NCBI RefSeq assembly: GCF_033153115.1
Contig: NW_026889803.1
Span: 12,586,001-12,650,000, forward strand
DNA: 64,000 bases
Source of the DNA: Saccostrea echinata
Taxonomy: Eukaryota
Reading direction: 5' to 3'
The first letter of the stretch is position 1. Every line of letters begins with the position of its first letter. This document shows, piece by piece, positions 16,607 through 55,575 of this stretch. The notes beneath the pieces were generated by a model, which saw only the letters and a list, made by a program, of their open reading frames with translations, searched no databases and was not told the DNA's origin. Position numbers and translations under genes: made by a program.

Positions 16607-17140
16607 ACAAGAAGTCCATGGGACACAACGTTCACCTGAGTCACCATGGCCCGGCTAATTTTTAGGGAAAAAAAATTATCCTCTTTATTCAGATCCAAAA
16701 AATCATTTATATTAACCAGCTTTAAAGGTTGAGGCTATCTGCTAGCTGGCAGGAGTTATCTCTCCATAAGTGTTTACGAGTTATCTCGCATTACAACCTT
16801 AATACTTTCATTACGGAAAATTTAGCCCCACCCTTACTTCAGGTTCCTTAATTTGAAAAAAAAAAATCAACAGAACTTAAAAAATATTAGCATAATGATA
16901 TGATATGGTATGGACTTTCTTCTCTTGATCCCGTATTCAGACTTGAATCTACACTAATCATGGTCCTGCTGTTTTTCATAAGAGTTTCACTATATAGTAC
17001 CATTTAAAAATTTGATTTCCTATTGTGAGTAATCATGGACCTACTGTTCTTCAGAAAAAAATGAAGAATTTTCCCTATATATATTCCTATGTACAACTTT
17101 GATCCCCTGGTTTGGCCCAACCTACCCCCAAGGATCTTAG
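16607..17140. mobile_element. Left part of a non-autonomous Helentron-type (HINE-like) element with Cg170-like satellite remnants
   Basis: Terminus ACAAGAAGTCCATGGGACACAACGTTCACCTGAG with subterminal IR TCACCTGAG. Internal satellite-like motifs acttgaatctacacta, aaaatttgatttcctattgtg, tttgatcccctggtttggcccaacctacccccaaggatc. Family assignment is from recognition of the motifs, not from a search. Confidence 0.75.
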
Positions 17141-17436
17141 CTGGGAATCATTCTTAATGCTTAATTCTTAAGTTAAAAATAAATTCTTTCTTAAGAAAAA
17201 ATTCTCAAGTCATAATCATATAAATTTTAAGCGCAATTCTTAGTTAAGTTTAATTCTGCGAAAATTAGAACACTTAAGTCCCCTAGTAACGCATAAAAAT
17301 TACCAAATAAAAAGTGCACTCTTCTGTGATGGAGGAATTAAGTATAGCATGGTTCCTAATGAAAGATTAAGATTTCTTCTGTGTACTATTAGTTTTATTT
17401 TGTTAAAGAAAACTTAAGTATTTCTTATCTACATGC

Positions 17437-17867
17437 ATCTGTGTAAATCACAATTGGGACGGAGTTAGTTGCATGAAAATGGTTTCAAAATAAAACTTTA
17501 TTTCTTTACAGTGTTTGAGAATGCAATTTTTGTAGGAAGATATAGCAGTTGCAAAGGTGTGAGAGAGTAATTGCACGTGCTCAGTGCAGTTCCAAACAAT
17601 ATACACACAACAAGTTCCATATTTCTTTCTGCTGTGAAGAAGTAAATACAAGGTCATTGTTGCAGTCTTTGAAAAGTAACTGTTTTGTCAGCTGAGCTCT
17701 AGTCATCACGTGACCAGTAACCGTACAGCGCTATCAATAGAAAACGTGAAAGTTCTTATAATTACCGACGCTTTAGACTTACAGTGTATGTAGATAAATG
17801 ATTTTTCAACGGTAACTGTCATTACACTTTTGCATGAATGTTAGATACTTTGCAGCGCATTGCGGCT

Positions 17868-17942
<75 letters not shown>

Positions 17943-20900
17943 AATCTTCTCTGTGACTCCACTTTTGTTCTGACTTAATTTTTAAAATTTATTTTCCATA
18001 TATGGGATTGAGAGGTGAAAATTTGAAAATTGGGCAGCATCTTAACAAACAACTTTAAATTTCACATCTTAACATTTTCATGTGCCAAAAATAAATAAAT
18101 AAATTCAGATGTTTGACTATATTAGACATAAACCAAAGTCAAATAAAATATGTGAGTTTCCAAGTCTAAACTGCGGCATTATACTTATGTCATTCGAAGA
18201 AAGATCACCAGAGATTTGAAGTGTTCATTCTACAACAAATAATTTTAATTTGTGCATATAAAGCGGTTTAATTCTTGTCGAACAAGGCAAAGTTTTGAGA
18301 ATACCCGAAGTCAGCAAAAGAAAGAGCATTCAATACATCTCAATGATTCGCAATAGCCTGAGTAAATTTTATATAGATACATGTATAAGATCATTGGCCT
18401 TGTCATGATTTGCATATTGCCGTTTTTAGGAGCATTTTTATTTCTAAATTTTAAAAATTATTTGTGCATAAATAATTTTAGAGAGTGCTACTGTTATCTA
18501 TTTGTCATTGTGTTCTGCAGGTTTCATGCATTTCGCTCGACCCAGTTAATCCAAATAAAGTCAGGTTGTACCTAAATATATTATTTCAAAAGAAATTCAT
18601 GCATGGGCAATGAAATTCAAAGACACGTACTGAAATACGGAATAAGAAGGGGGATCTTTTAGCCGATAAACATTTTCATATTATTTTTGACTTAATTGAA
18701 GATAATCCGTATTATTGAATATTTCTGACTTAATGTATCGTTAAGAGTGTTTTTTAAAAATGTTTTTCCTTTACTGACAATGTACTACAAAATGTATTGG
18801 TAAAAACTGACATGCATTAAAAATAAATATCTGCGGATTTCTGTTTGTTTGTTTTATTTGTTTTTTACTTTGAAAAAAAATTAAGTACCTCTTCTCTACC
18901 TCTTATGAAGGGTTTAATATAACGTAGTTTTCGCATCTTTTAACAGTATTTCTTTAGCAAGATAAACTCTCATCATTTCACAATGAACTTGCGCAATAAA
19001 ATTAGCTTCATTTCTTTGATCGTTGTTCTTACATCGTTCAAAGGGAGATCATTTGAATACAGCCAGAGTTACCTTATGCAAATTTCACAAAATAACAGTT
19101 AAGCATTTGAAAGATTAGTATAAATGCGAGATTTCTGAGGGTGGTGGTGGGATAATCTCTAAAAGGTTATTAACAAAAATTCTCTGCTTCTTTCTAATAA
19201 AGAAGGCACATTCACGCACATGTATCGGAAAGTGCACATGCATGCATAGTGCTGCAAATGCAGCCTGTGTACCCAAAATGTGCACCATCAACAACACTCG
19301 TACTTATTTCAAAGTTTCACAAATTGATTCATTTTTTTTTTTCAAAACCTCGGATATTTTAATCCTAAGATACTTTCCTTTATTTATACAAATGAGTTAT
19401 CTTTGTAAATCAGAATTGGGACGGAGTTAGTTGCATGAAAATGGTTTCAAAATAAAACTTTTTCTTTACAGTGTTTGAGAATGCAATTTGTGTAGGAAGA
19501 TATAGCAATTGCAAAGGTGTGAGAGAGTAATTGCACGTGCTCAGTGCAGTTCCAAACAATATACACACAACAAGTTCCCGATTTCTTTCTGCTGTGAAGA
19601 AGTAAATACAAGGTCATTGTTGCAGTCTTTGAAAAGTAACTGTTTTGTCAGCTGAGCTCTAGTCATCACGTGACCAGTAACCGTTCAGCGCTATCAATAG
19701 AAAACGTGAAAGCTCTTATAATTACCGACGCTTTAGACTTATGTAGAATTTTGTGTAGATGCATGTATAAGATCATTGGCCTAGTCATGATTTGCATATT
19801 GCTCTTTTTAGGAGCATTTTTATTTCTAAATTTTAAAAATTATTTGTGAATAAATAATTTTAGAGAGTTCTACTGTTATCTATTTGTCATTGTGTTCTGC
19901 AGGTTTCATGCATTTCGCTCGACCCAGTTAATCAAAATTAAGTCAGTTTGTGTCTAAATATTCTATTTCCAAAAAAATTTATGCATGGGCAATGAAATTC
20001 AAAAACACGTACTGAAATACGGAATAAAAAGGGGGGTCTTTTAGCCGATAAACATTTTCATATTATTTTTGACTTAATTGAAGATCATCTTTATTATTGA
20101 ATATTTCTGACTTAATGTATCGTTAAGAGTGTTGTTGTTTTAAAAATGTTTTTCCTTTACTGACAATGTACTACAAAATGTATTGGTAAAAACTGACATG
20201 CATTAAAAATAAATATCTGCGGATTTCTGTTTGTTTGTTTTATTTGTTTTTTACTTTGAAAAAAAATTAAGTACCTCTTCTCTACCTCTTATGAAGGGTT
20301 TAATATAACGTAGTTTTCGCATCTTTTAACAGTATTTCTTTAGCAAGATAAACTCTCATCATTTCACAATGAACTTGCGCAATAATATTAGCTTCATTTC
20401 TTTGATCGTTGTTCTTACATCGTTCAAAGGGAGATCATTTGAATACAGCCAGAGTTACCTTATGCAAATTTCACAAAATAACAGTTAAGCATTTGAAAGA
20501 TTAGTATAAATGCGAGATTTCTGAGGGTGGTGGTGGGATAATTTCTAAAAAGTTATTAACAAAAATTCTCTGCTTCTTTCTAATAAAGAAGGCACATTCA
20601 TGCACATGTATCGGAAAGTGCACATGCATGCATAGTGCTGCAAATGCAGCCTGTGTACCCAAAATGTGCACCATCAACAACACTCGTACTTATTTCAAAG
20701 TTTCACAAATTGATTCATTTTTTTTTTCAAAACCTCGGATATTTTAATCCTAAGATACTTTCCTTTATTTATACAAATGAGTTATCTTTGTAAATCAGAA
20801 TTGGGACGGAGTTAGTTGCATGAAAATGGTTTCAAAATAAAACTTTTTCTTTACAGTGTTTGAGAATGCAATTTGTGTAGGAAGATATAGCAATTGCAAA

Positions 20901-23900
20901 GGTGTGAGAGAGTAATTGCACGTGCTCAGTGCAGTTCCAAACAATATACACACAACAAGTTCCCGATTTCTTTCTGCTGTGAAGAAGTAAATACAAGGTC
21001 ATTGTTGCAGTCTTTGAAAAGTAACTGTTTTGTCAGCTGAGCTCTAGTCATCACGTGACCAGTAACCGTTCAGCGCTATCAATAGAAAACGTGAAAGCTC
21101 TTATAATTACCGACGCTTTAGACTTATGTAGAATTTTGTGTAGATGCATGTATAAGATCATTGGCCTAGTCATGATTTGCATATTGCTCTTTTTAGGAGC
21201 ATATTTATTTCTAAATTTTAAAATTATTAGTGCATAAATAATTTTAGAGAGTTCTACTGTTATCTATTTGTCATTGTGTTCTGCAGGTTTCATGCATTTT
21301 GCCCGACCCAGTTAATCAAAATTAAGTCAGTTTGTACCTAAATATATTATTTCAAAAGAAATTCATGCTTGGGCAATGAAATTCAAAGACACGTACTGAA
21401 ATACGGAATAAAAAGGGGGGTCTTTTAGCCGATAAACATTTTCATATTATTTTTGACTTAATTGAAGATAATCCGTATTATTGAATATTTCTGACTTAAT
21501 GTATCGTTAAGAGTGTTTTTTAAAAATGTTTTTCCTTTACTGACAATGTACTACAAAATGTATTGGTAAAAACTGACATGCATTAAAAATAAATATCTGC
21601 GGATTTCTGTTTGTTTGTTTTATTTGTTTTTTACTTTGAAAAAAAATTAAGTACCTCTTCTCTACCTCTTATGAAGGGTTTAATATAACGTAGTTTTCGC
21701 ATCTTTTAACAGTATTTCTTTAGCAAGATAAACTCTCATCATCTCACAATGAACTTGCGCAATAATATTAGCTTCATTTCTTTGATCGTTGTTCTTACAT
21801 CGTTCAAAGGGAGATCATTTGAATACAGCCAGAGTTACCTTATGCAAATTTCACAAAATAACAGTTAAGCATTTGAAAGATTAGTATAAATGCGAGATTT
21901 CTGAGGGTGGTGGTGGGATAATCTCTAAAAGGTTATTAACAAAAATTCTCTGCTTCTTTCTAATAAAGAAGGCACATTCACGCACATGTATCGGAAAGTG
22001 CACATGCATGCATAGTGCTGCAAATGCAGCCTGTGTACCCAAAATGTGCACCATCAACAACACTCGTACTTATTTCAAAGTTTCACAAATTGATTCATTT
22101 TTTTTTTCAAAACCTCGGATATTTTAATCCTAAGATACTTTCCTTTATTTATACAAATGAGTTATCTTTGTAAATCAGAATTGGGACGGAGTTAGTTGCA
22201 TGAAAATGGTTTCAAAATAAAACTTTTTCTTTACAGTGTTTGAGAATGCAATTTTTGTAGGAAGATATAGCAATTGCAAAGGTGTGAGAGAGTAATTGCA
22301 CGTGCTCAGTGCAGTTCCAAACAATATACACACAACAAGTTCCCGATTTCTTTCTGCTGTGAAGAAGTAAATACAAGGTCATTGTTGCAGTCTTTGAAAA
22401 GTAACTGTTTTGTCAGCTGAGCTCTAGTCATCACGTGACCAGTAACCGTTCAGCGCTATCAATAGAAAACGTGAAAGCTCTTATAATTACCGACGCTTTA
22501 GACTTATGTAGAATTTTGTGTAGATGCATGTATAAGATCATTGGCCTAGTCATGATTTGCATATTGCTCTTTTTAGGAGCATATTTATTTCTAAATTTTA
22601 AAATTATTAGTGCATAAATAATTTTAGAGAGTTCTACTGTTATCTATTTGTCATTGTGTTCTGCAGGTTTCATGCATTTCGCCCGACCCAGTTAATCAAA
22701 ATTAAGTCAGTTTGTACCTAAATATATTATTTCAAAAGAAATTCATGCATGGGCAATGAAATTCAAAGACACGTACTGAAATACGGAATAAAAAGGGGGG
22801 TCTTTTAGCCGATAAACATTTTCATATTATTTTTGACTTAATTGAAGATAATCCGTATTATTGAATATTTCTGACTTAATGTATCGTTAAGAGTGTTTTT
22901 TAAAAATGTTTTTCCTTTACTGACAATGTACTACAAAATGTATTGGTAAAAACTGACATGCATTAAAAATAAATATCTGCGGATTTCTGTTTGTTTGTTT
23001 TATTTGTTTTTTACTTTGAAAAAAAATTAAGTACCTCTTCTCTACCTCTTATGAAGGGTTTAATATAACGTAGTTTTCGCATCTTTTAACAGTATTTCTT
23101 TAGCAAGATAAACTCTCATCATCTCACAATGAACTTGCGCAATAATATTAGCTTCATTTCTTTGATCGTTGTTCTTACATCGTTCAAAGGGAGATCATTT
23201 GAATACAGCCAGAGTTACCTTATGCAAATTTCACAAAATAACAGTTAAGCATTTGAAAGATTAGTATAAATGCGAGATTTCTGAGGGTGGTGGTGGGATA
23301 ATCTCTAAAAGGTTATTAACAAAAATTCTCTGCTTCTTTCTAATAAAGAAGGCACATTCACGCACATGTATCGGAAAGTGCACATGCATGCATAGTGCTG
23401 CAAATGCAGCCTGTGTACCCAAAATGTGCACCATCAACAACACTCGTACTTATTTCAAAGTTTCACAAATTGATTCATTTTTTTTTTCAAAACCTCGGAT
23501 ATTTTAATCCTAAGATACTTTCCTTTATTTATACAAATGAGTTATCTTTGTAAATCAGAATTGGGACGGAGTTAGTTGCATGAAAATGGTTTCAAAATAA
23601 AACTTTTTCTTTACAGTGTTTGAGAATGCAATTTTTGTAGGAAGATATAGCAATTGCAAAGGTGTGAGAGAGTAATTGCACGTGCTCAGTGCAGTTCCAA
23701 ACAATATACACACAACAAGTTCCCGATTTCTTTCTGCTGTGAAGAAGTAAATACAAGGTCATTGTTGCAGTCTTTGAAAAGTAACTGTTTTGTCAGCTGA
23801 GCTCTAGTCATCACGTGACCAGTAACCGTTCAGCGCTATCAATAGAAAACGTGAAAGCTCTTATAATTACCGACGCTTTAGACTTATGTAGAATTTTGTG

Positions 23901-26900
23901 TAGATGCATGTATAAGATCATTGGCCTAGTCATGATTTGCATATTGCTCTTTTTAGGAGCATATTTATTTCTAAATTTTAAAATTATTAGTGCATAAATA
24001 ATTTTAGAGAGTTCTACTGTTATCTATTTGTCATTGTGTTCTGCAGGTTTCATGCATTTCGCCCGACCCAGTTAATCAAAATTAAGTCAGTTTGTACCTA
24101 AATATATTATTTCAAAAGAAATTCATGCATGGGCAATGAAATTCAAAGACACGTACTGAAATACGGAATAAAAAGGGGGGTCTTTTAGCCGATAAACATT
24201 TTCATATTATTTTTGACTTAATTGAAGATAATCCGTATTATTGAATATTTCTGACTTAATGTATCGTTAAGAGTGTTTTTTAAAAATGTTTTTCCTTTAC
24301 TGACAATGTACTACAAAATGTATTGGTAAAAACTGACATGCATTAAAAATAAATATCTGCGGATTTCTGTTTGTTTGTTTTATTTGTTTTTTACTTTGAA
24401 AAAAAATTAAGTACCTCTTCTCTACCTCTTATGAAGGGTTTAATATAACGTAGTTTTCGCATCTTTTAACAGTATTTCTTTAGCAAGATAAACTCTCATC
24501 ATCTCACAATGAACTTGCGCAATAATATTAGCTTCATTTCTTTGATCGTTGTTCTTACATCGTTCAAAGGGAGATCATTTGAATACAGCCAGAGTTACCT
24601 TATGCAAATTTCACAAAATAACAGTTAAGCATTTGAAAGATTAGTATAAATGCGAGATTTCTGAGGGTGGTGGTGGGATAATCTCTAAAAGGTTATTAAC
24701 AAAAATTCTCTGCTTCTTTCTAATAAAGAAGGCACATTCACGCACATGTATCGGAAAGTGCACATGCATGCATAGTGCTGCAAATGCAGCCTGTGTACCC
24801 AAAATGTGCACCATCAACAACACTCGTACTTATTTCAAAGTTTCACAAATTGATTCATTTTTTTTTTCAAAACCTCGGATATTTTAATCCTAAGATACTT
24901 TCCTTTATTTATACAAATGAGTTATCTTTGTAAATCAGAATTGGGACGGAGTTAGTTGCATGAAAATGGTTTCAAAATAAAACTTTTTCTTTACAGTGTT
25001 TGAGAATGCAATTTTTGTAGGAAGATATAGCAATTGCAAAGGTGTGAGAGAGTAATTGCACGTGCTCAGTGCAGTTCCAAACAATATACACACAACAAGT
25101 TCCCGATTTCTTTCTGCTGTGAAGAAGTAAATACAAGGTCATTGTTGCAGTCTTTGAAAAGTAACTGTTTTGTCAGCTGAGCTCTAGTCATCACGTGACC
25201 AGTAACCGTTCAGCGCTATCAATAGAAAACGTGAAAGCTCTTATAATTACCGACGCTTTAGACTTATGTAGAATTTTGTGTAGATGCATGTATAAGATCA
25301 TTGGCCTAGTCATGATTTGCATATTGCTCTTTTTAGGAGCATATTTATTTCTAAATTTTAAAATTATTAGTGCATAAATAATTTTAGAGAGTTCTACTGT
25401 TATCTATTTGTCATTGTGTTCTGCAGGTTTCATGCATTTCGCCCGACCCAGTTAATCAAAATTAAGTCAGTTTGTACCTAAATATATTATTTCAAAAGAA
25501 ATTCATGCATGGGCAATGAAATTCAAAGACACGTACTGAAATACGGAATAAAAAGGGGGGTCTTTTAGCCGATAAACATTTTCATATTATTTTTGACTTA
25601 ATTGAAGATAATCCGTATTATTGAATATTTCTGACTTAATGTATCGTTAAGAGTGTTTTTTAAAAATGTTTTTCCTTTACTGACAATGTACTACAAAATG
25701 TATTGGTAAAAACTGACATGCATTAAAAATAAATATCTGCGGATTTCTGTTTGTTTGTTTTATTTGTTTTTTACTTTGAAAAAAAATTAAGTACCTCTTC
25801 TCTACCTCTTATGAAGGGTTTAATATAACGTAGTTTTCGCATCTTTTAACAGTATTTCTTTAGCAAGATAAACTCTCATCATCTCACAATGAACTTGCGC
25901 AATAATATTAGCTTCATTTCTTTGATCGTTGTTCTTACATCGTTCAAAGGGAGATCATTTGAATACAGCCAGAGTTACCATATGCAAATTTCACAAAATA
26001 ACAGTTAAGCATTTGAAAGATTAGTATAAATGCGAGATTTCTGAGGGTGGTGGTGGGATAATTTCTAAAAGGTTATTAACAAAAATTCTCTGCTTCTTTC
26101 TAATAAAGAAGGCACATTCACGCACATGTATCGGAAAGTGCACATGCATGCATAGTGCTGCAAATGCAGCCTGTGTACCCAAAATGTGCACCATCAACAA
26201 CACTCGTACTTATTTCAAAGTTTCACAAATTGATTCATTTTTTTTTTTTTCAAAACCTCGGATATTTTAATCCTAAGATACTTTCCTTTATTTATACAAA
26301 TGAGTTATCTTTGTAAATCAGAATTGGGACGGAGTTAGTTGCATGAAAATGGTTTCAAAATAAAACTTTTTCTTTACAGTGTTTGAGAATGCAATTTTTG
26401 TAGGAAGATATAGCAATTGCAAAGGTGTGAGAGAGTAATTGCACGTGCTCAGTGCAGTTCCAAACAATATACACACAACAAGTTCCCGATTTCTTTCTGC
26501 TGTGAAGAAGTAAATACAAGGTCATTGTTGCAGTCTTTGAAAAGTAACTGTTTTGTCAGCTGAGCTCTAGTCATCACGTGACCAGTAACCGTTCAGCGCT
26601 ATCAATAGAAAACGTGAAAGCTCTTATAATTACCGACGCTTTAGACTTATGTAGAATTTTGTGTAGATGCATGTATAAGATCATTGGCCTAGTCATGATT
26701 TGCATATTGCTCTTTTTAGGAGCATTTTTATTTCTAAATTTTAAAATTATTAGTGCATAAATAATTTTAGAGAGTTCTACTGTTATCTATTTGTCATTGT
26801 GTTCTGCAGGTTTCATGCATTTCGCCCGACCCAGTTAATCAAAATTAAGTCAGTTTGTACCTAAATATATTATTTCAAAAGAAATTCATGCATGGGCAAT

Positions 26901-29900
26901 GAAATTCAAAGACACGTACTGAAATACGGAATAAAAAGGGGGGTCTTTTAGCCGATAAACATTTTCATATTATTTTTGACTTAATTGAAGATAATCCGTA
27001 TTATTGAATATTTCTGACTTAATGTATCGTTAAGAGTGTTTTTTAAAAATGTTTTTCCTTTACTGACAATGTACTACAAAATGTATTGGTAAAAACTGAC
27101 ATGCATTAAAAATAAATATCTGCGGATTTCTGTTTGTTTGTTTTATTTGTTTTTTACTTTGAAAAAAAATTAAGTACCTCTTCTCTACCTCTTATGAAGG
27201 GTTTAATATAACGTAGTTTTCGCATCTTTTAACAGTATTTCTTTAGCAAGATAAACTCTCATCATCTCACAATGAACTTGCGCAATAATATTAGCTTCAT
27301 TTCTTTGATCGTTGTTCTTACATCGTTCAAAGGGAGATCATTTGAATACAGCCAGAGTTACCATATGCAAATTTCACAAAATAACAGTTAAGCATTTGAA
27401 AGATTAGTATAAATGCGAGATTTCTGAGGGTGGTGGTGGGATAATTTCTAAAAGGTTATTAACAAAAATTCTCTGCTTCTTTCTAATAAAGAAGGCACAT
27501 TCACGCACATGTATCGGAAAGTGCACATGCATGCATAGTGCTGCAAATGCAGCCTGTGTACCCAAAATGTGCACCATCAACAACACTCGTACTTATTTCA
27601 AAGTTTCACAAATTGATTCATTTTTTTTTTTCAAAACCTCGGATATTTTAATCCTAAGATACTTTCCTTTATTTATACAAATGAGTTATCTTTGTAAATC
27701 AGAATTGGGACGGAGTTAGTTGCATGAAAATGGTTTCAAAATAAAACTTTTTCTTTACAGTGTTTGAGAATGCAATTTTTGTAGGAAGATATAGCAATTG
27801 CAAAGGTGTGAGAGAGTAATTGCACGTGCTCAGTGCAGTTCCAAACAATATACACACAACAAGTTCCCGATTTCTTTCTGCTGTGAAGAAGTAAATACAA
27901 GGTCATTGTTGCAGTCTTTGAAAAGTAACTGTTTTGTCAGCTGAGCTCTAGTCATCACGTGACCAGTAACCGTTCAGCGCTATCAATAGAAAACGTGAAA
28001 GCTCTTATAATTACCGACGCTTTAGACTTATGTAGAATTTTGTGTAGATGCATGTATAAGATCATTGGCCTAGTCATGATTTGCATATTGCTCTTTTTAG
28101 GAGCATTTTTATTTCTAAATTTTAAAATTATTAGTGCATAAATAATTTTAGAGAGTTCTACTGTTATCTATTTGTCATTGTGTTCTGCAGGTTTCATGCA
28201 TTTTGCCCGACCCAGTTAATCAAAATTAAGTCAGTTTGTACCTAAATATATTATTTCAAAAGAAATTCATGCATGGGCAATGAAATTCAAAGACACGTAC
28301 TGAAATACGGAATAAAAAGGGGGGTCTTTTAGCCGATAAACATTTTCATATTATTTTTGACTTAATTGAAGATAATCCGTATTATTGAATATTTCTGACT
28401 TAATGTATCGTTAAGAGTGTTTTTTAAAAATGTTTTTCCTTTACTGACAATGTACTACAAAATGTATTGGTAAAAACTGACATGCATTAAAAATAAATAT
28501 CTGCGGATTTCTGTTTGTTTGTTTTATTTGTTTTTTACTTTGAAAAAAAATTAAGTACCTCTTCTCTACCTCTTATGAAGGGTTTAATATAACGTAGTTT
28601 TCGCATCTTTTAACAGTATTTCTTTAGCAAGATAAACTCTCATCATTTCACAATGAACTTGCGCAATAATATTAGCTTCATTTCTTTGATCGTTGTTCTT
28701 ACATCGTTCAAAGGGAGATCATTTGAATACAGCCAGAGTTACCTTATGCAAATTTCACGAAATAACAGTTAAGCATTTGAAAGATTAGTATAAATGCGAG
28801 ATTTCCGAGGGTGGTGGTGGGATAATCTCTAAAAGGTTATTAACAAAAATTCTCTGCTTCTTTCTAATAAAGAAGGCACATTCACGCATATGTATCGGAA
28901 AGTGCACATGCATGCATAGTGCTGCAAATGCAGCCTGTGTACCCAAAATGTGCACCATCAACAACACTCGTACTTATTTCAAAGTTTCACAAATTGATTC
29001 ATTTTTTTTTTTCAAAACCTCGGATATTTTAATCCTAAGATACTTTCCTTTATTTATACAAATGAGTTATCTTTGTAAATCAGAATTGGGACGGAGTTAG
29101 TTGCATGAAAATGGTTTCAAAATAAAACTTTTTCTTTACAGTGTTTGAGAATGCAATTTGTGTAGGAAGATATAGCAATTGCAAAGGTGTGAGAGAGTAA
29201 TTGCACGTGCTCAGTGCAGTTCCAAACAATATACACACAACAAGTTCCCGATTTCTTTCTGCTGTGAAGAAGTAAATACAAGGTCATTGTTGCAGTCTTT
29301 GAAAAGTAACTGTTTTGTCAGCTGAGCTCTAGTCATCACGTGACCAGTAACCGTTCAGCGCTATCAATAGAAAACGTGAAAGCTCTTATAATTACCGACG
29401 CTTTAGACTTATGTAGAATTTTGTGTAGATGCATGTATAAGATCATTGGCCTAGTCATGATTTGCATATTGCTCTTTTTAGGAGCATTTTTATTTCTAAA
29501 TTTTAAAATTATTAGTGCATAAATAATTTTAGAGAGTTCTACTGTTATCTATTTGTCATTGTGTTCTGCAGGTTTCATGCATTTCGCCCGACCCAGTTAA
29601 TCAAAATTAAGTCAGTTTGTACCTAAATATATTATTTCAAAAGAAATTCATGCATGGGCAATGAAATTCAAAGACACGTACTGAAATACGGAATAAAAAG
29701 GGGGGTCTTTTAGCCGATAAACATTTTCATATTATTTTTGACTTAATTGAAGATAATCCGTATTATTGAATATTTCTGACTTAATGTATCGTTAAGAGTG
29801 TTTTTTAAAAATGTTTTTCCTTTACTGACAATGTACTACAAAATGTATTGGTAAAAACTGACATGCATTAAAAATAAATATCTGCGGATTTCTGTTTGTT

Positions 29901-41900: not shown

Positions 41901-44900
41901 GCATTTTTATTTCTAAATTTTAAAATTATTAGTGCACAAATAATTTTAGAGAGTTCTACTGTTATCTATTTGTCATTGTGTTCTGCAGGTTTCATGCATT
42001 TCGCCCGACCCAGTTAATCAAAATTAAGTCAGTTTGTACCTAAATATATTATTTCAAAAGAAATTCATGCATGGGCAATGAAATTCAAAGACACGTACTG
42101 AAATACGGAATAAAAAGGGGGGTCTTTTAGCCGATAAACATTTTCATATTATTTTTGACTTAATTGAAGATAATCCGTATTATTGAATATTTCTGACTTA
42201 ATGTATCGTTAAGAGTGTTTTTTAAAAATGTTTTTCCTTTACTGACAATGTACTACAAAATGTATTGGTAAAAACTGACATGCATTGAAAATAAATATCT
42301 GCGGATTTCTGTTTGTTTGTTTTATTTGTTTTTTACTTTGAAAAAAAATTAAGTACCTCTTCTCTACCTCTTATGAAGGGTTTAATATAACGTAGTTTTC
42401 GCATCTTTTAACAGTATTTCTTTAGCAAGATAAACTCTCATCATTTCACAATGAACTTGCGCAATAATATTAGCTTCATTTCTTTGATCGTTGTTCTTAC
42501 ATCGTTCAAAGGGAGATCATTTGAATACAGCCAGAGTTACCTTATGCAAATTTCACAAAATAACAGTTAAGCATTTGAAAGATTAGTATAAATGCGAGAT
42601 TTCTGAGGGTGGTGGTGGGATAATCTCTAAAAGGTTATTAACAAAAATTCTCTGCTTCTTTCTAATAAAGAAGGCACATTCACGCACATGTATCGGAAAG
42701 TGCACATGCATGCATAGTGCTGCAAATGCAGCCTGTGTACCCAAAATGTGCACCATCAACAACACTCGTACTTATTTCAAAGTTTCACAAATTGATTCAT
42801 TTTTTTTTTCAAAACCTCGGATATTTTAATCCTAAGATACTTTCCTTTATTTATACAAATGAGTTATCTTTGTAAATCAGAATTGGGACGGAGTTAGTTG
42901 CATGAAAATGGTTTCAAAATAAAACTTTTTCTTTACAGTGTTTGAGAATGCAATTTGTGTAGGAAGATATAGCAATTGCAAAGGTGTGAGAGAGTAATTG
43001 CACGTGCTCAGTGCAGTTCCAAACAATATACACACAACAAGTTCCCGATTTCTTTCTGCTGTGAAGAAGTAAATACAAGGTCATTGTTGCAGTCTTTGAA
43101 AAGTAACTGTTTTGTCAGCTGAGCTCTAGTCATCACGTGACCAGTAACCGTTCAGCGCTATCAATAGAAAACGTGAAAGCTCTTATAATTACCGACGCTT
43201 TAGACTTATGTAGAATTTTGTGTAGATGCATGTATAAGATCATTGGCCTAGTCATGATTTGCATATTGCTCTTTTTAGGAGCATTTTTATTTCTAAATTT
43301 TAAAATTATTAGTGCATAAATAATTTTAGAGAGTTCTACTGTTATCTATTTGTCATTGTGTTCTGCAGGTTTCATGCATTTTGCCCGACCCAGTTAATCA
43401 AAATTAAGTCAGTTTGTACCTAAATATATTATTTCAAAAGAAATTCATGCATGGGCAATGAAATTCAAAGACACGTACTGAAATACGGAATAAAAAGGGG
43501 GGTCTTTTAGCCGATAAACATTTTCATATTATTTTTGACTTAATTGAAGATAATCCGTATTATTGAATATTTCTGACTTAATGTATCGTTAAGAGTGTTT
43601 TTTAAAAATGTTTTTCCTTTACTGACAATGTACTACAAAATGTATTGGTAAAAACTGACATGCATTGAAAATAAATATCTGCGGATTTCTGTTTGTTTGT
43701 TTTATTTGTTTTTTTACTTTGAAAAAAAATTAAGTACCTCTTCTCTACCTCTTATGAAGGGTTTAATATAACGTAGTTTTCGCATCTTTTAACAGTATTT
43801 CTTTAGCAAGATAAACTCTCATCATTTCACAATGAACTTGCGCAATAATATTAGCTTCATTTCTTTGATCGTTGTTCTTACATCGTTCAAAGGGAGATCA
43901 TTTGAATACAGCCAGAGTTACCTTATGCAAATTTCACAAAATAACAGTTAAGCATTTGAAAGATTAGTATAAATGCGAGATTTCTGAGGGTGGTGGTGGG
44001 ATAATCTCTAAAAGGTTATTAACAAAAATTCTCTGCTTCTTTCTAATAAAGAAGGCACATTCACGCACATGTATCGGAAAGTGCACATGCATGCATAGTG
44101 CTGCAAATGCAGCCTGTGTACCCAAAATGTGCACCATCAACAACACTCGTACTTATTTCAAAGTTTCACAAATTGATTCATTTTTTTTTTTCAAAACCTC
44201 GGATATTTTAATCCTAAGATACTTTCCTTTATTTATACAAATGAGTTATCTTTGTAAATCAGAATTGGGACGGAGTTAGTTGCATGAAAATGGTTTCAAA
44301 ATAAAACTTTTTCTTTACAGTGTTTGAGAATGCAATTTTTGTAGGAAGATATAGCAATTGCAAAGGTGTGAGAGAGTAATTGCACGTGCTCAGTGCAGTT
44401 CCAAACAATATACACACAACAAGTTCCCGATTTCTTTCTGCTGTGAAGAAGTAAATACAAGGTCATTGTTGCAGTCTTTGAAAAGTAACTGTTTTGTCAG
44501 CTGAGCTCTAGTCATCACGTGACCAGTAACCGTTCAGCGCTATCAATAGAAAACGTGAAAGCTCTTATAATTACCGACGCTTTAGACTTATGTAGAATTT
44601 TGTGTAGATGCATGTATAAGATCATTGGCCTAGTCATGATTTGCATATTGCTCTTTTTAGGAGCATTTTTATTTCTAAATTTTAAAATTATTAGTGCATA
44701 AATAATTTTAGAGAGTTCTACTGTTATCTATTTGTCATTGTGTTCTGCAGGTTTCATGCATTTCGCCCGACCCAGTTAATCAAAATTAAGTCAGTTTGTA
44801 CCTAAATATATTATTTCAAAAGAAATTCATGCATGGGCAATGAAATTCAAAGACACGTACTGAAATACGGAATAAAAAGGGGGGTCTTTTAGCCGATAAA

Positions 44901-47900
44901 CATTTTCATATTATTTTTGACTTAATTGAAGATAATCCGTATTATTGAATATTTCTGACTTAATGTATCGTTAAGAGTGTTTTTTAAAAATGTTTTTCCT
45001 TTACTGACAATGTACTACAAAATGTATTGGTAAAAACTGACATGCATTGAAAATAAATATCTGCGGATTTCTGTTTGTTTGTTTTATTTGTTTTTTTACT
45101 TTGAAAAAAAATTAAGTACCTCTTCTCTACCTCTTATGAAGGGTTTAATATAACGTAGTTTTCGCATCTTTTAACAGTATTTCTTTAGCAAGATAAACTC
45201 TCATCATTTCACAATGAACTTGCGCAATAATATTAGCTTCATTTCTTTGATCGTTGTTCTTACATCGTTCAAAGGGAGATCATTTGAATACAGCCAGAGT
45301 TACCTTATGCAAATTTCACAAAATAACAGTTAAGCATTTGAAAGATTAGTATAAATGCGAGATTTCTGAGGGTGGTGGTGGGATAATCTCTAAAAGGTTA
45401 TTAACAAAAATTCTCTGCTTCTTTCTAATAAAGAAGGCACATTCACGCACATGTATCGGAAAGTGCACATGCATGCATAGTGCTGCAAATGCAGCCTGTG
45501 TACCCAAAATGTGCACCATCAACAACACTCGTACTTATTTCAAAGTTTCACAAATTGATTCATTTTTTTTTTTTTCAAAACCTCGGATATTTTAATCCTA
45601 AGATACTTTCCTTTATTTATACAAATGAGTTATCTTTGTAAATCAGAATTGGGACGGAGTTAGTTGCATGAAAATGGTTTCAAAATAAAACTTTTTCTTT
45701 ACAGTGTTTGAGAATGCAATTTTTGTAGGAAGATATAGCAATTGCAAAGGTGTGAGAGAGTAATTGCACGTGCTCAGTGCAGTTCCAAACAATATACACA
45801 CAACAAGTTCCCGATTTCTTTCTGCTGTGAAGAAGTAAATACAAGGTCATTGTTGCAGTCTTTGAAAAGTAACTGTTTTGTCAGCTGAGCTCTAGTCATC
45901 ACGTGACCAGTAACCGTTCAGCGCTATCAATAGAAAACGTGAAAGCTCTTATAATTACCGACGCTTTAGACTTATGTAGAATTTTGTGTAGATGCATGTA
46001 TAAGATCATTGGCCTAGTCATGATTTGCATATTGCTCTTTTTAGGAGCATTTTTATTTCTAAATTTTAAAATTATTAGTGCATAAATAATTTTAGAGAGT
46101 TCTACTGTTATCTATTTGTCATTGTGTTCTGCAGGTTTCATGCATTTCGCCCGACCCAGTTAATCAAAATTAAGTCAGTTTGTACCTAAATATATTATTT
46201 CAAAAGAAATTCATGCATGGGCAATGAAATTCAAAGACACGTACTGAAATACGGAATAAAAAGGGGGGTCTTTTAGCCGATAAACATTTTCATATTATTT
46301 TTGACTTAATTGAAGATAATCCGTATTATTGAATATTTCTGACTTAATGTATCGTTAAGAGTGTTTTTTAAAAATGTTTTTCCTTTACTGACAATGTACT
46401 ACAAAATGTATTGGTAAAAACTGACATGCATTGAAAATAAATATCTGCGGATTTCTGTTTGTTTGTTTTATTTGTTTTTTTACTTTGAAAAAAAATTAAG
46501 TACCTCTTCTCTACCTCTTATGAAGGGTTTAATATAACGTAGTTTTCGCATCTTTTAACAGTATTTCTTTAGCAAGATAAACTCTCATCATTTCACAATG
46601 AACTTGCGCAATAATATTAGCTTCATTTCTTTGATCGTTGTTCTTACATCGTTCAAAGGGAGATCATTTGAATACAGCCAGAGTTACCTTATGCAAATTT
46701 CACAAAATAACAGTTAAGCATTTGAAAGATTAGTATAAATGCGAGATTTCTGAGGGTGGTGGTGGGATAATCTCTAAAAGGTTATTAACAAAAATTCTCT
46801 GCTTCTTTCTAATAAAGAAGGCACATTCACGCACATGTATCGGAAAGTGCACATGCATGCATAGTGCTGCAAATGCAGCCTGTGTACCCAAAATGTGCAT
46901 CATCAACAACACTCGTACTTATTTCAAAGTTTCACAAATTGATTCATTTTTTTTTTTCAAAACCTCGGATATTTTAATCCTAAGATACTTTCCTTTATTT
47001 ATACAAATGAGTTATCTTTGTAAATCAGAATTGGGACGGAGTTAGTTGCATGAAAATGGTTTCAAAATAAAACTTTTTCTTTACAGTGTTTGAGAATGCG
47101 ATTTTTGTAGGAAGATATAGCAATTGCAAAGGTGTGAGAGAGTAATTGCACGTGCTCAGTGCAGTTCCAAACAATATACACACAACAAGTTCCCGATTTC
47201 TTTCTGCTGTGAAGAAGTAAATACAAGGTCATTGTTGCAGTCTTTGAAAAGTAACTGTTTTGTCAGCTGAGCTCTAGTCATCACGTGACCAGTAACCGTT
47301 CAGCGCTATCAATAGAAAACGTGAAAGCTCTTATAATTACCGACGCTTTAGACTTATGTAGAATTTTGTGTAGATGCATGTATAAGATCATTGGCCTAGT
47401 CATGATTTGCATATTGCTCTTTTTAGGAGCATTTTTATTTCTAAATTTTAAAATTATTAGTGCATAAATAATTTTAGAGAGTTCTACTGTTATCTATTTG
47501 TCATTGTGTTCTGCAGGTTTCATGCATTTCGCCCGACCCAGTTAATCAAAATTAAGTCAGTTTGTACCTAAATATATTATTTCAAAAGAAATTCATGCAT
47601 GGGCAATGAAATTCAAAGACACGTACTGAAATACGGAATAAAAAGGGGGGTCTTTTAGCCGATAAACATTTTCATATTATTTTTGACTTAATTGAAGATA
47701 ATCCGTATTATTGAATATTTCTGACTTAATGTATCGTTAAGAGTGTTTTTTAAAAATGTTTTTCCTTTACTGACAATGTACTACAAAATGTATTGGTAAA
47801 AACTGACATGCATTAAAAATAAATATCTGCGGATTTCTGTTTGTTTGTTTTATTTGTTTTTTTACTTTGAAAAAAAATTAAGTACCTCTTCTCTACCTCT

Positions 47901-50900
47901 TATGAAGGGTTTAATATAACGTAGTTTTCGCATCTTTTAACAGTATTTCTTTAGCAAGATAAACTCTCATCATTTCACAATGAACTTGCGCAATAATATT
48001 AGCTTCATTTCTTTGATCGTTGTTCTTACATCGTTCAAAGGGAGATCATTTGAATACAGCCAGAGTTACCTTATGCAAATTTCACAAAATAACAGTTAAG
48101 CATTTGAAAGATTAGTATAAATGCGAGATTTCTGAGGGTGGTGGTGGGATAATCTCTAAAAGGTTATTAACAAAAATTCTCTGCTTCTTTCTAATAAAGA
48201 AGGCACATTCACGCACATGTATCGGAAAGTGCACATGCATGCATAGTGCTGCAAATGCAGCCTGTGTACCCAAAATGTGCACCATCAACAACACTCGTAC
48301 TTATTTCAAAGTTTCACAAATTGATTCATTTTTTTTTTCAAAACCTTGGATATTTTAATCCTAAGATACTTTCCTTTATTTATACAAATGAGTTATCTTT
48401 GTAAATCAGAATTGGGACGGAGTTAGTTGCATGAAAATGGTTTCAAAATAAAACTTTTTCTTTACAGTGTTTGAGAATGCGATTTTTGTAGGAAGATATA
48501 GCAATTGCAAAGGTGTGAGAGAGTAATTGCACGTGCTCAGTGCAGTTCCAAACAATATACACACAACAAGTTCCCGATTTCTTTCTGCTGTGAAGAAGTA
48601 AATACAAGGTCATTGTTGCAGTCTTTGAAAAGTAACTGTTTTGTCAGCTGAGCTCTAGTCATCACGTGACCAGTAACCGTTCAGCGCTATCAATAGAAAA
48701 CGTGAAAGCTCTTATAATTACCGACGCTTTAGACTTATGTAGAATTTTGTGTAGATGCATGTATAAGATCATTGGCCTAGTCATGATTTGCATATTGCTC
48801 TTTTTAGGAGCATTTTTATTTCTAAATTTTAAAATTATTAGTGCATAAATAATTTTAGAGAGTTCTACTGTTATCTATTTGTCATTGTGTTCTGCAGGTT
48901 TCATGCATTTCGCCCGACCCAGTTAATCAAAATTAAGTCAGTTTGTACCTAAATATATTATTTCAAAAGAAATTCATGCATGGGCAATGAAATTCAAAGA
49001 CACGTACTGAAATACGGAATAAAAAGGGGGGTCTTTTAGCCGATAAACATTTTCATATTATTTTTGACTTAATTGAAGATAATCCGTATTATTGAATATT
49101 TCTGACTTAATGTATCGTTAAGAGTGTTTTTTAAAAATGTTTTTCCTTTACTGACAATGTACTACAAAATGTATTGGTAAAAACTGACATGCATTAAAAA
49201 TAAATATCTGCGGATTTCTGTTTGTTTGTTTTATTTGTTTTTTTACTTTGAAAAAAAATTAAGTACCTCTTCTCTACCTCTTATGAAGGGTTTAATATAA
49301 CGTAGTTTTCGCATCTTTTAACAGTATTTCTTTAGCAAGATAAACTCTCATCATTTCACAATGAACTTGCGCAATAATATTAGCTTCATTTCTTTGATCG
49401 TTGTTCTTACATCGTTCAAAGGGAGATCATTTGAATACAGCCAGAGTTACCTTATGCAAATTTCACAAAATAACAGTTAAGCATTTGAAAGATTAGTATA
49501 AATGCGAGATTTCTGAGGGTGGTGGTGGGATAATCTCTAAAAGGTTATTAACAAAAATTCTCTGCTTCTTTCTAATAAAGAAGGCACATTCACGCACATG
49601 TATCGGAAAGTGCACATGCATGCATAGTGCTGCAAATGCAGCCTGTGTACCCAAAATGTGCACCATCAACAACACTCGTACTTATTTCAAAGTTTCACAA
49701 ATTGATTCATTTTTTTTTCAAAACCTTGGATATTTTAATCCTAAGATACTTTCCTTTATTTATACAAATGAGTTATCTTTGTAAATCAGAATTGGGACGG
49801 AGTTAGTTGCATGAAAATGGTTTCAAAATAAAACTTTTTCTTTACAGTGTTTGAGAATGCGATTTTTGTAGGAAGATATAGCAATTGCAAAGGTGTGAGA
49901 GAGTAATTGCACGTGCTCAGTGCAGTTCCAAACAATATACACACAACAAGTTCCCGATTTCTTTCTGCTGTGAAGAAGTAAATACAAGGTCATTGTTGCA
50001 GTCTTTGAAAAGTAACTGTTTTGTCAGCTGAGCTCTAGTCATCACGTGACCAGTAACCGTTCAGCGCTATCAATAGAAAACGTGAAAGCTCTTATAATTA
50101 CCGACGCTTTAGACTTATGTAGAATTTTGTGTAGATGCATGTATAAGATCATTGGCCTAGTCATGATTTGCATATTGCTCTTTTTAGGAGCATTTTTATT
50201 TCTAAATTTTAAAATTATTAGTGCATAAATAATTTTAGAGAGTTCTACTGTTATCTATTTGTCATTGTGTTCTGCAGGTTTCATGCATTTCGCCCGACCC
50301 AGTTAATCAAAATTAAGTCAGTTTGTACCTAAATATATTATTTCAAAAGAAATTCATGCATGGGCAATGAAATTCAAAGACACGTACTGAAATACGGAAT
50401 AAAAAGGGGGGTCTTTTAGCCGATAAACATTTTCATATTATTTTTGACTTAATTGAAGATAATCCGTATTATTGAATATTTCTGACTTAATGTATCGTTA
50501 AGAGTGTTTTTTAAAAATGTTTTTCCTTTACTGACAATGTACTACAAAATGTATTGGTAAAAACTGACATGCATTAAAAATAAATATCTGCGGATTTCTG
50601 TTTGTTTGTTTTATTTGTTTTTTTACTTTGAAAAAAAATTAAGTACCTCTTCTCTACCTCTTATGAAGGGTTTAATATAACGTAGTTTTCGCATCTTTTA
50701 ACAGTATTTCTTTAGCAAGATAAACTCTCATCATTTCACAATGAACTTGCGCAATAATATTAGCTTCATTTGGTTGGTTTGGTTTTTCTTTCTTTAAAAA
50801 AAATTAAGTACCTCATCTCTACCTCTTATGAAGGGTTTAATATAACGTAGTTTCCGCATCTTCTAACAGTACTTCTTTAACAAGATAAACTCTCATCATT

Positions 50901-52703
50901 TCACAATGAACTTGCGCAATAATATTAGCTTCATTTCTTTGATCGTTGTTCTTACATCGTTCAAAGGGAGATCATTTGAATACAGCCAGAGTTACCTTAT
51001 GCAAATTTCACAAAATAACAGTTAAGCATTTGAAAGATTAGTATAAATGCGAGATTTCTGAGGGTGGTGGTGGGATAATCTCTAAAAGGTTATTAACAAA
51101 AATTCTCTGCTTCTTTCTAATAAAGAAGGCACATTCACGCACATGTATCGGAAAGTGCACATGCATGCATAGTGCTGCAAATGCAGCCTATGTACCCAAA
51201 ATGTGCACCATCAACAACACTCGTACTTATTTCAAAGTTTCACAAATTGATTCATTTTTTTTTTCAAAACCTCGGATATTTTAATCCTAAGATACTTTCC
51301 TTTATTTATACAAATGAGTTATCTTTGTAAATCAGAATTGGGACGGAGTTAGTTGCATGAAAATGGTTTCAAAATAAAACTTTTTCTTTACAGTGTTTGA
51401 GAATGCAATTTGTGTAGGAAGATATAGCAATTGCAAAGGTGTGAGAGAGTAATTGCACGTGCTCAGTGCAGTTCCAAACAATATACACACAACAAGTTCC
51501 CGATTTCTTTCTGCTGTGAAGAAGTAAATACAAGGTCATTGTTGTAGTCTTTGAAAAGTAACTGTTTTGTCAGCTGAGCTCTAGTCATCACGTGACCAGT
51601 AACCGTTCAGCGCTATCAATAGAAAACGTGAAAGCTCTTATAATTACCGACGCTTTAGACTTATGTAGAATTTTGTGTAGATGCATGTATAAGATCATTG
51701 GCCTAGTCATGATTTGCATATTGCTCTTTTTAGGAGCATTTTTATTTCTAAATTTTAAAATTATTAGTGCATAAATAATTTTAGAGAGTTCTACTGTTAT
51801 CTATTTGTCATTGTGTTCTGCAGGTTTCATGCATTTCGCCCGACCCAGTTAATCAAAATTAAGTCAGTTTGTACCTAAATATATTATTTCAAAAGAAATT
51901 CATGCATGGGCAATGAAATTCAAAGACACGTACTGAAATACGGAATAAAAAGGGGGGTCTTTTAGCCGATAAACATTTTCATATTATTTTTGACTTAATT
52001 GAAGATAATCCGTATTATTGAATATTTCTGACTTAATGTATCGTTAAGAGTGTTTTTTAAAAATGTTTTTCCTTTACTGACAATGTACTACAAAATGTAT
52101 TGGTAAAAACTGACATGCATTAAAAGTAAATATCTGCGGATTTTTGTTTGTTTGGTTGGTTTGGTTTTTCTTTCTTTAAAAAAAATTAAGTACCTCTTCT
52201 CTACCTCTTATGAAGGGTTTAATATAACGTAGTTTCCGCATCTTCTAACAGTACTTCTTTAACAAGATAAACTCTCATCATTTCACAATGAACTTGCGCA
52301 ATAATATTAGCTTCATTTCTTTGATCGTTGTTCTTGCGTCGTTCAAAGGGAGATCATTTGAATACAGCCAGAGTTACCTTATGCAAATTTCACAAAATAA
52401 CAGTTAAGCATTTGAAAGATTACTATAAATGTGAGATTTCTGGAGGGTGGTGGTGGATTAAATTATAAAAGGTTATTAACAAAAATTCTTTGCTTCTTTC
52501 TAATAAAGAAGGCACATTCACGCACATGTATCGGAAAGTGCACATGCATGCATAGTGCTGCAAATGCAGCATGTGTACCCAAAATGTGCACCATCATTAA
52601 CACTCGTACTTATTTCAAAGTTTCACAAATTGATTCATTTTTTCCCCCAAACCTGGGATATTTTAATCTTAGGATTCTTTCCTTTATTTACACAAGTGAG
52701 TTA
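17437..52703. repeat. Tandem macrosatellite: 25 copies of a ~1380-bp unit
   Basis: Marker GTGACCAGTAACCG recurs at 17710, 19670, 21055, 22435, 23815, 25195, 26578, 27959, 29340, 30720, 32100, 33480, 34860, 36239, 37618, 38999, 40378, 41757, 43137, 44519, 45903, 47285, 48666, 50046, 51592. Unit junction gagtt|atctttgtaaatca. Copy 1 is 1962 bp and copy 24 is 1546 bp. Confidence 0.99.
17871..17939. repeat. (AT)n microsatellite within the copy-1-specific segment
   Basis: Uninterrupted AT run, absent from copies 2-25. Confidence 0.97.
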
Positions 52704-52990
52704 CATGGGATTAAGGGGGCCGACTGGGGTTTTCATTGTGCAATACTTCGGGCAGCATAGTAAAATCATGAAAGCGTATTTCCTATTTTAAAGCAACTAT
52801 TTTTACATAATTTATAAAAATTTCATTTTTATAATTTCTTACTTAAAGTCAACACTTAAATACTAAATATGTTTATGAATTTCCAACATTAAAGTACATG
52901 TACTATTAAGAGAACTAAAGTAAAAAGATATCACTTAAGTGATTTTAAAACCTAAGTTTATACTAAGAAGTTTTATGAAACCCGTTCAAG

Positions 52991-53278
52991 GCTTGAATTG
53001 AACAATCTTAAGTTGATATTATGTCAGGAAACTTTCATACAAGTTTCATCTTTTCTGACCCACTGAATCTAAGGAAGAAGATTTTTAAAAGAGGTCACCA
53101 AATTTTCACCTATTCTAATTGAAAGAAGGCGTTGCTCTTCACTTGAAAAACAATTGGAATTCCCTTCTTTGAATGCTTTGTGACAAGTAGTCAAAATGCA
53201 GGCTTAAGCTGCAGACGACAGAAGGACGACGGACTAAATGTGATCAAGAAAGCATGAGCTTTCAGCTCAGGTGAGCAA
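52991..53278. mobile_element. Right part of the Helentron-type (HINE-like) element
   Basis: Satellite monomer resumes (ttgaacaatctt...ttcatacaagtttcatcttttctg...gaagaagattttt), followed by a GAC-rich microsatellite remnant (gcagacgacagaaggacgacggac), hairpin TGAGCTTTCAGCTCA and subterminal IR CTCAGGTGAG complementary to 16632-16640. Ends in an A run. Confidence 0.8.
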
Positions 53279-53982: not shown

Positions 53983-55575
53983 CAATGACAATGAATTTAT
54001 TTTCATAAACTGACATTAAGTACAGTGTAGAGACAGATTACAAATATTGTTAAACATGTGTGCATGCGTGAAACAGAAAAAGTACAAAGTCAAAAAGCTA
54101 ACAATGACCTAACCAGGAGAGCCAACTCTCTCACAGATAATTTTTATAATTTTACACAGTTTTATCAATTTAACTGTATTTTTTGTATTAGAAAGTTGTT
54201 CAAACTTATACACATTTGGATATAAATAGTAATACTTTGATAATAGTGATAATCTTGATTTCAAAATAGATGGGTCATTACAATTAAGGAGGCTGGGGGG
54301 TCAACAAATTAACCACAAAGTAACCACCAGATTTAACTTAACTTTTTTAGATATGATATCTTAAGCTGTCAACTATCATTTGGCAAAGAAAAATTTCAAA
54401 AATTTTAGTTTTAAAATTTGATCATTTTCTATATCTTCATATGGAGCTCTTCTTGTAAAGGAGATCAATATAGTCTAAAAATGGCCACAACCCCCAGCCT
54501 CTTTAAATAAGTAATGATATTCATCACCAATTTTATATTTTTAACATAACATACAAATTCTATTTTCTCTTGGTACATTTTGCCATCTCCCAACTTCAAT
54601 CGGTAATTTATTATTACAAGTTCTAAACCTACATAATAATTTCCAGTACTTACAAGGCAAAGATACTAAATACTTTTCTAAACAAAATGAAGTTTTATAT
54701 ATTCTGTAATTAAGACCTTTAGATGAATTAAACATTTCACTGTACCATAATGTCCATGACTGTTTAAACTTATCATACAGAGTGTTAAAAACTACTTTCT
54801 TCAGCCAAGATACATTCACTGGTTGGCAAGTTTGCCAGATATAAGAAAGCCCATATTCATTCAGTATAGATTTGATAAAGTAACACCATGGATTATTGTA
54901 GTTCTTCAAAACAATTAACAGATTTGAGGATAATTTATCACCTTGTAAAAAAGATAATTTTCACCAAAAACTTATCATTCTTACCTTAATATTAATTGAA
55001 ATAGGGTATCTACCTGATTCACCGTATACCATAAAATTTGGTGTAGATAATTTTACATTTAAAATATGTTTACAAAATTTTAAATGCAATTTTTCAACTA
55101 ATGGTGACTGATTATAACCCCATACTTCACATCCATATAAAAATACAGGCTTTACAATTTTGTCAGACATATCTAATGTACATTCTACAGTACGGTTGTG
55201 TTTTCTACATTTTCCTATAACACCATACATAGCTTTTGTTACTTTTTGAAATAATTCCTTAATATTTGTATTAAATGAACCATTTTTACAAAAACTTACA
55301 CTTAAATATTTAAAATTATCTATAATTTCTAATATTTTACCATTTAATGTAAATGGTGTTCCAATTCTTGGATTGCCTTTTCCAAAGATTACAACCTTAG
55401 TTTTATTAGCGTTAACTTTCAGATGCCATCGTTTACAATAATTGTTAAAAATATTCAATTGGTGTTGAAGATCTTCTGGTGTTTCTGACAGAAGAATTGT
55501 GTCATCAGCATATAAGAAAACAAACAATCTAAGATACAAATCAAACTCTTTTTCTAATTTGGCAGATATAAACGA
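53983..55575 (-). mobile_element. 5'-truncated, frameshifted non-LTR retrotransposon (RT C-terminal half; RTE-X/CR1-like group)
   Basis: LYADDTILL, LKVNANKTKVVIF, FKYL, LYGCEVWG, HLKFCK, YGESGRYP, KLPIEVGRW..PRENRICMLC, GDEYHYLFNC. Stop at 54111-54109, then AATAAA and a short CATTGT-type tail near 53983-54001. Confidence 0.92.
54288..54502. mobile_element. Kolobok-like MITE (215 bp) inserted in the retrotransposon
   Basis: TIR GGAGGCTGGGG / CCCCAGCCTCT with TTAA TSD (54284-54287, 54503-54506). Removing it restores GDEYHYLFNCNDPS on the minus strand. Confidence 0.9.

Follow-up and report, generated by a model that had tools for sequence, protein, structure and literature searches.

We examined a 64-kb stretch of contig NW_026889803.1 (12,586,001-12,650,000 of the forward strand; hereafter the window, within which positions are counted and copies of unit words and arms were scored) and found that it contains a well-preserved nest of three layers: a decayed HINE of the Helentron type, an inner insert of 35.9 kb that interrupts it, and an array of 25 units within the insert. 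The insert is laid out as a 300-bp arm, exactly 25 units of approximately 1380 bp, and a 289-bp arm. The array lies within an insertion that splits the satellite monomer of the HINE, and it probably expanded on the spot as adjacent units underwent recurrent unequal exchange. The data support a composite of roughly 3 kb prior to expansion (2.8 or 3.4 kb, according to which unit length is ancestral). The original prediction, made from the sequence alone, had described a nest of three levels with a precursor of about this size, and both descriptions hold. It had also credited growth of the array to the rolling-circle element; the ends of the HINE are decayed, and the variants within the array point instead to stepwise local duplication. 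The nest behaves like known satellites that grow from the interior of an insertion through local recombination, and by itself is no new mechanism. No report of the locus or of this exact nest was found in the open-access text searched.

In-register comparison resolved the array (17437..52703) into exactly 25 head-to-tail units. Each of five anchor words taken from the unit is found in register at 25 positions with a period of 1379–1385 bp, in agreement with the 25 interior copies counted earlier, this being the count in the assembly; two of the five words have one extra hit each, due either to local duplication or to a site outside the array. The array comprises a whole number of units, and the head-to-tail joint has a 1-bp overlap. 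Two units depart from the usual length, unit 1 (17437..19403) at 1962 bp and unit 24 at 1546 bp. The extra segment of unit 1, approximately 580 bp in size (about 17781-18364), contains (TA)35 and is absent from all other units; it has no long match elsewhere in the window and no terminal inverted repeat. Most of the segment is flanked by a 5-bp direct repeat, compatible either with an ancestral segment that was lost from the amplified unit or with an insertion. The array is non-coding, with no Pfam or Rfam match, and no Rfam match was found across the window. None of the 7 open reading frames of the array or arms, among 19 window proteins searched, matched Pfam, nor did any of 12 stop-masked frames read from the arms and from the units at the array edges. 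No N occurs in the array, the sole N run of the window (9119-9251, 133 N) lying approximately 7.4 kb to the left of the element. With its many homogenized, head-to-tail, kilobase-sized and non-coding units, the array has the organization of a macrosatellite. The unit is unrelated to the HINE's own satellite and contains no HINE end, consistent with the earlier view that the array is foreign to the HINE. Splice-acceptor-like tracts, followed by short stretches and a GT, were seen by eye at 17513-17558 and 18522-18560, and in each unit, with no protein match.

The variation among units supports growth by local events. Units 3-24 (20789..51325) form a young homogenized core of 22 units, any two of which are separated on average by 5.1 substitutions (0.37%). 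Between adjacent core units the figure is 3.0, compared to 5.1 when their order is shuffled (p 5e-5, 20,000 permutations). Variants are also shared locally, in that 11 of 17 shared variant sites mark uninterrupted stretches of units (on average 0.77 and never more than 7 under permutation), and the only identical pairs among the core units, three in number, are all neighbours (4-5, 12-13, and 22-23). Similarly, three clades of the core tree are strongly supported and each is a neighbour pair (8-9, 10-11, and 12-13). We compared these data with a star model in which a single concatemer accumulates independent mutations; over 300 runs the model never produced more than 3 shared sites or fewer than 35 singletons, compared to the 17 and 9 observed. 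A one-shot rolling-circle concatemer is therefore rejected. The four-gamete test was failed by 21 of 136 site pairs, as expected under conversion or recurrent change. The core variants comprise 18 transitions and 8 transversions. The mean difference between units does not fall at any of the lags between 2 and 11, thereby rejecting doubled alleles placed one after the other at those offsets. Taken as a whole, the variants favour local duplication in steps, building on an older oligomer.

The older oligomer can still be read at the edges of the array, where the edge units retain a divergence of 3-6% that is concentrated in the outward half of each. Unit 1 departs from the core majority at 25 sites, of which 24 lie within its first 690 positions (14/295 in one stretch), so that its left half represents an older lineage. 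Unit 2 (19404..20788) is a mosaic whose middle stretch belongs to a third of the older lineages and differs at 11/320 positions from the core and at 19/321 from unit 1. Unit 25 (51326..52703) is core-like in its left part (3 differences in the first 805 positions) and of an older lineage in its right part (36/597 differences in the last 600 bp). This old divergence in units 1, 2, and 25 indicates that an older oligomer with three or more copies came first, and that the amplified unit is a chimera spanning its joint. An additional patch of 166 bp in unit 24 (50771..50936) has the alleles of unit 25, from which it differs at 1/166 positions, compared to 11/166 for the core; the sequence downstream is again of the core type (1/388). 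The patch is a local out-of-register transfer from unit 25.

The outer element lies on the minus strand and measures 816 bp once the insert is subtracted. Its 3′ half (16607..17136, single copy in the window) contains the end box and the right module as well as a portion of a Cg170-like monomer. Its 5′ half (52993..53278) contains the remainder of the monomer, a microsatellite remnant, a decayed internal inverted repeat, and the 5′ subterminal inverted repeat (53265-53276). The terminal sequences identify the element as a non-autonomous Helentron of the Helitron-N2/Cg_HINE group 1 type. When compared by eye with the Helitron-N2/N2C_CGi boxes given in a supplement passage of PMC8268682, Box 1 matched at 35 of 44 letters (53239-53278) and Box 2 at 31 of 39 printed letters (16607-16645), with both matches in the same orientation. 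Subterminal words at 16632 and 53266, each present once in the window, supply the inverted repeats of 11-13 bp by which HINEs are recognized; the 5′ copy is identical to the Cg_HINE_1 repeat (12/12) and the 3′ copy matches at 10/12, as judged by eye against Table S2 of PMC7492417. The exact 9-bp inverted core of these words was reached by 50 of 1500 random 60x60 pairs, and so is modest evidence on its own. The matching subterminal repeats, spaced 36.7 kb apart, had been correctly recognized in the original prediction. The terminal hairpin that it also described persists as the remnant of a palindrome (16614..16624, minus strand), in which 13 of 16 positions match the Cg_HINE_1 palindrome and 3 differ, by eye comparison with the same table, leaving a stem of only 4 bp around a 3-nt loop. 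Decay is likewise apparent at the 5′ end, where by eye the internal inverted repeat beside the subterminal repeat has lost 4 nt and the microsatellite is eroded (about 53213-53235). Runs of A on the plus strand at both ends of the HINE fit a T-rich target without target-site duplication.

HINEs with Cg170-family repeats have been well described (PMC7492417, PMC4067079). The one examined here has a central repeat of the Cg170/HindIII family in fixed orientation; the satellite earlier ascribed to it is thus present, as about one monomer on the minus strand rather than as an array. This monomer is interrupted at 17136 and resumes at 52993, the positions proposed for the break, and the two halves align by eye with a C. 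gigas CL1 monomer at 74 of 113 identical positions with no gap over the break. The gapless alignment indicates that both HINE halves derive from one insertion with zero net loss; the concern that the halves might come from differing insertions is thereby answered. The outer Helentron was probably a passive landing site, with its rolling-circle nature incidental to the array.

The inner insert is bounded by a left arm (17137..17436, 300 bp) and a right arm (52704..52992, 289 bp), each present once in the window, as had been noted for two unique arms of about 290 bp. Both arms are rich in CTTAAG-type words, a class that was selected after inspection of the sequence. The left arm contains 14 TTAAG/CTTAA words compared to 2.45 in shuffles, and the right arm contains 6 compared to 1.98 (p 0.02); flank tiles (n=90) contain 0.7 on average and never more than 3. 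The word ACTTAAGT, also picked after inspection, occurs 3 times in the window and always within the arms. Transposase-binding subterminal regions have palindromic words clustered near both ends. On the basis of this clustering, the inner block is read as a likely non-autonomous, unclassified DNA transposon, the ends of which would be eroded or very short. Its description as a terminal inverted repeat element was not borne out. The left arm paired with the reverse-complemented right arm at the level of shuffles for all five lengths compared (p 0.51, 0.59, 0.85, 0.63, and 0.62), and the best end-anchored pairing, 10/16, was equalled by 635 of 3000 random pairs. A long-terminal-repeat-like structure was also rejected for the block.

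Relatives of the inner block were sought in several collections. No entry of a bivalve DDE library begins like either arm, based on approximately the first 400 letters of each entry, and the PHIS supplements contained no match to the block. By eye, the start of hAT_A.kagoshimensis_17, in the same bivalve library (PMC10294476), has a similar word cluster, which we regard as a lead only. Exact-word scans found no occurrence of a unit 24-mer in viral contigs or of a unit 20-mer in metagenomes. A 19-mer from the right arm was found at 11 metagenome loci, none of which was related; at only one of these (L008) did the match extend beyond the word, to 29 bp, and this was judged to be chance. The source of that match, at 3182-3724 of L008, is what we take from its reading to be a 180-aa LAGLIDADG-like frame in rRNA-like sequence. 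Words from the inner block were absent, save for one unrelated hit, from the C. gigas CL1-13 array table, the long cells of which were visible in part. Within the block itself, the end of the left arm (17371-17432) is approximately 72% like a segment inside the unit (18836-18899; E 0.03), perhaps an older internal repeat.

These data can be arranged as a history of five steps. A HINE of the Helitron-N2 type, identified by the similarity of its ends, would have entered an A/T run. A block of 2.0-2.55 kb, likely a non-autonomous DNA transposon, would then have entered the HINE monomer; the clean break is observed and the mobility of the block is our interpretation. The interior of the block may next have been duplicated head to tail through a near-blunt joint, where the observed 1-bp overlap would fit an origin by repair. 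At least three copies would have persisted until they were 3-6% diverged, as seen in units 1, 2, and 25. Finally, a chimeric unit that spans the joint would have expanded recently to 22 near-identical copies by local duplications and conversions, a pattern that is observed, the driver being presumably unequal exchange or break-induced template switching. A model of two stages, in which a small tandem is followed by unequal exchange, has been put forward previously (PMC5932611, PMC12628747).

Several points weigh against this history. The copy number of 25 is an assembly count alone. The decay of the HINE was scored against a C. gigas consensus, and the element may be younger if the host is another species. 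The call of a transposon rests on the clean break and the motif-rich arms, there being no significant terminal inverted repeat or target duplication and no second copy found; moreover, the right HINE half also contains 4 TTAAG/CTTAA words, weakening the signal of the right arm. In addition, the core tree is star-like at its base, with 14 of 21 inner branches left open and the bootstrap not settled, which leaves room for an early burst that produced a small number of copies, through a rolling circle or by some other means.

The last point bears on an alternative in which excision of the unit as an extrachromosomal circle, or its copying by the Helentron Rep/helicase, gave a concatemer that integrated here; local turnover would since have overwritten part of the signal. 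Truncated Helitrons are described to form tandem arrays (PMC12628747), and such a burst would account for the star-like base, for the identity of unit 17 to the majority sequence, and for a whole number of units that share one joint. However, a whole number of units is also the product of any expansion of one tandem duplication, the star model of a single-shot concatemer failed, and the three older lineages kept by the edge units would not have come from a single circle. Canonical Helitron arrays have a 5′ TC after A, a 3′ hairpin, and CTRR before T. The array does open with A and then TC, like the 5′ ends of Helitrons, but no CTRR is found on the plus strand at the end of the unit or of the block, nor does the unit carry a HINE end; it is thus no canonical Helitron tandem array. 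On this evidence, we regard the rolling-circle origin as improbable. It is quite improbable that the inner block is instead genomic DNA patched in at the repair of a break, or two unrelated fragments, with the middle amplified later. The arms show no terminal inverted repeat and there is no coding remnant. The joints would also suit repair, since the CTT overlap at the break is 3 bp, a length reached by 7.3% of random joins, and a 6-bp inverted repeat with a 1-nt centre spans the right joint (52985-52997), as in snap-back repair, although 136 of 5000 random sites equal it. Against a patch are the enrichment of palindromic words in both arms (14 and 6, compared to at most 3 in any of the 90 flank tiles) and the condition of the monomer, in which by eye the break brought neither a net loss nor a net gain.

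A potential concern is that the array was created by the assembler, the true locus having one to three units that were inflated or concatenated. The 35 kb involved is longer than many single reads, and the assembly is the sole source of the copy number. Nevertheless, the array is free of gaps, just three pairs of core units are identical, the variants are substitutions shared between neighbours with the proportion of transitions given above, and the lack of a dip at lags 2-11 excludes two alleles set end to end at those offsets. An assembly artefact is thus highly unlikely as the source of the array. Self-nesting of the whole element, or its tandemization through terminal direct repeats (Russian-doll, LTR-like, or KolobokP-like), would also produce arrays of kilobase units, and Kolobok-related satellites of 2414 bp are listed for C. 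gigas (PMC8268682). These routes are barely credible here, because each arm is present once and the array ends, with their 1-bp overlap, show no extra terminal repeat. Growth in place by unequal exchange accounts best for the edge lineages and for the local sharing of variants.

Other features of the window were noted on either side of the locus. Collinear pieces on the same strand, 70-90% alike, are found at 2893-6577 and 59291-63707; they are either the product of an old segmental duplication or a long non-coding repeat that is present twice. A segment at 11606-12151 is also similar to 61873-62339. A near-perfect palindrome of 71 bp (59204-59274) lies directly before the second of the duplicated blocks and none lies before the first. 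On the minus strand, 245-589 and 1037-1384 include an exon that encodes an LDL-receptor class A domain (E 3.6e-11) as well as a hydrophobic segment; the frame upstream appears CUB-like by eye, with no Pfam hit, and no second copy is present in the window. A broken fragment of a non-LTR retrotransposon, with a reverse transcriptase match (E 5e-11), is found at 54541-55746 on the minus strand.

The birth of satellites is usually inferred from end points. Here, at a single locus, both arms, the interrupted monomer of the HINE, the young core, and three old lineages of the unit are all readable, and the sequence of events can be pieced together from them. The earlier proposal that a new satellite is being born stands insofar as one local array has formed, and the locus illustrates neatly how new satellite DNA can arise by a route already known. 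Long reads from a population could reveal directly how fast units are gained, lost, and converted at this locus of a bivalve. The nest also carries a warning, in that arrays between Helentron ends need not be products of the Helentron, and surveys that call repeats element-associated from nearby end boxes could be counting passive nests. As a more speculative idea, to which we give little credence, the inner block could be an unclassified DNA transposon of molluscs, its ends set by clusters of palindromic CTTAAG sites and not by terminal inverted repeats, with an interior that seeds arrays of kilobase units at several loci, possibly through circles; if so, the locus would keep all stages from an old oligomer to a fresh expansion of 22 copies.

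Comparison with known systems places each layer of the nest. The outer element has in common with Cg_HINE group 1/Helitron-N2 and N2C_CGi of the Pacific oyster (PMC7492417, PMC8268682) the subterminal inverted repeat, both end boxes, the microsatellite remnant, the Cg170-family monomer, and a T-rich site without target duplication. It differs in size, 816 bp with about one monomer compared to a Helitron-N2_CGi consensus of up to 2310 bp, and its boxes are approximately 20% off; furthermore, the large array is not the HINE's own central repeat. The inner block resembles the PHIS superfamily (PIF/Harbinger, NuwaII; PMC4482050) in the 3-bp overlap at the break, in a left joint, CTTAG, of the NuwaII target form, and in a GGG-led word located 6 and 9 nt inside the two block ends. 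Membership was rejected, however, as PHIS elements have G/A-led terminal repeats and a 3-bp duplication of TWA, TNA, CWG, or ANT; the right joint here does not fit CTNAG, the overlap is CTT, the terminal repeat is not significant, and there is no transposase remnant.

The array itself is best compared with satellites of kilobase unit size. Oyster satellitomes list such repeats as related to DNA transposons and retroelements (PMC8268682, PMC11136912), among them in Tables 1-2 of PMC8268682 CgiSat34 (1423 bp, DNA3-8), CgiSat41 (1736 bp, Ginger1), CgiSat26 (1894 bp, Gypsy), and CgiSat52 (1656 bp, Polinton), the last three of which have 11, 13, and 17 monomers, respectively, on a single chromosome in one assembly. 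Compared by description only, the present array is like them in unit size, low copy number, and link to a transposon; the available text of PMC8268682 does not mention that any of them is nested in a HINE, and four words from the unit were absent from its supplement file, which may not contain monomers. In miDNA4, Xstir, and Tetris (PMC12628747 for the first two), the interior of an element is likewise amplified between two retained ends. Elements of this type have demonstrated inverted ends, many copies, and short units. Here, in contrast, the unit makes up most of the element, which is known from one locus. In Drosophila, internal-to-internal tandems and transposon arrays that expanded by unequal exchange follow the same two-stage route from a small tandem to a large array (PMC5932611); their main seed is a double insertion of whole elements, whereas the seed in this case would be a duplication inside one insertion.

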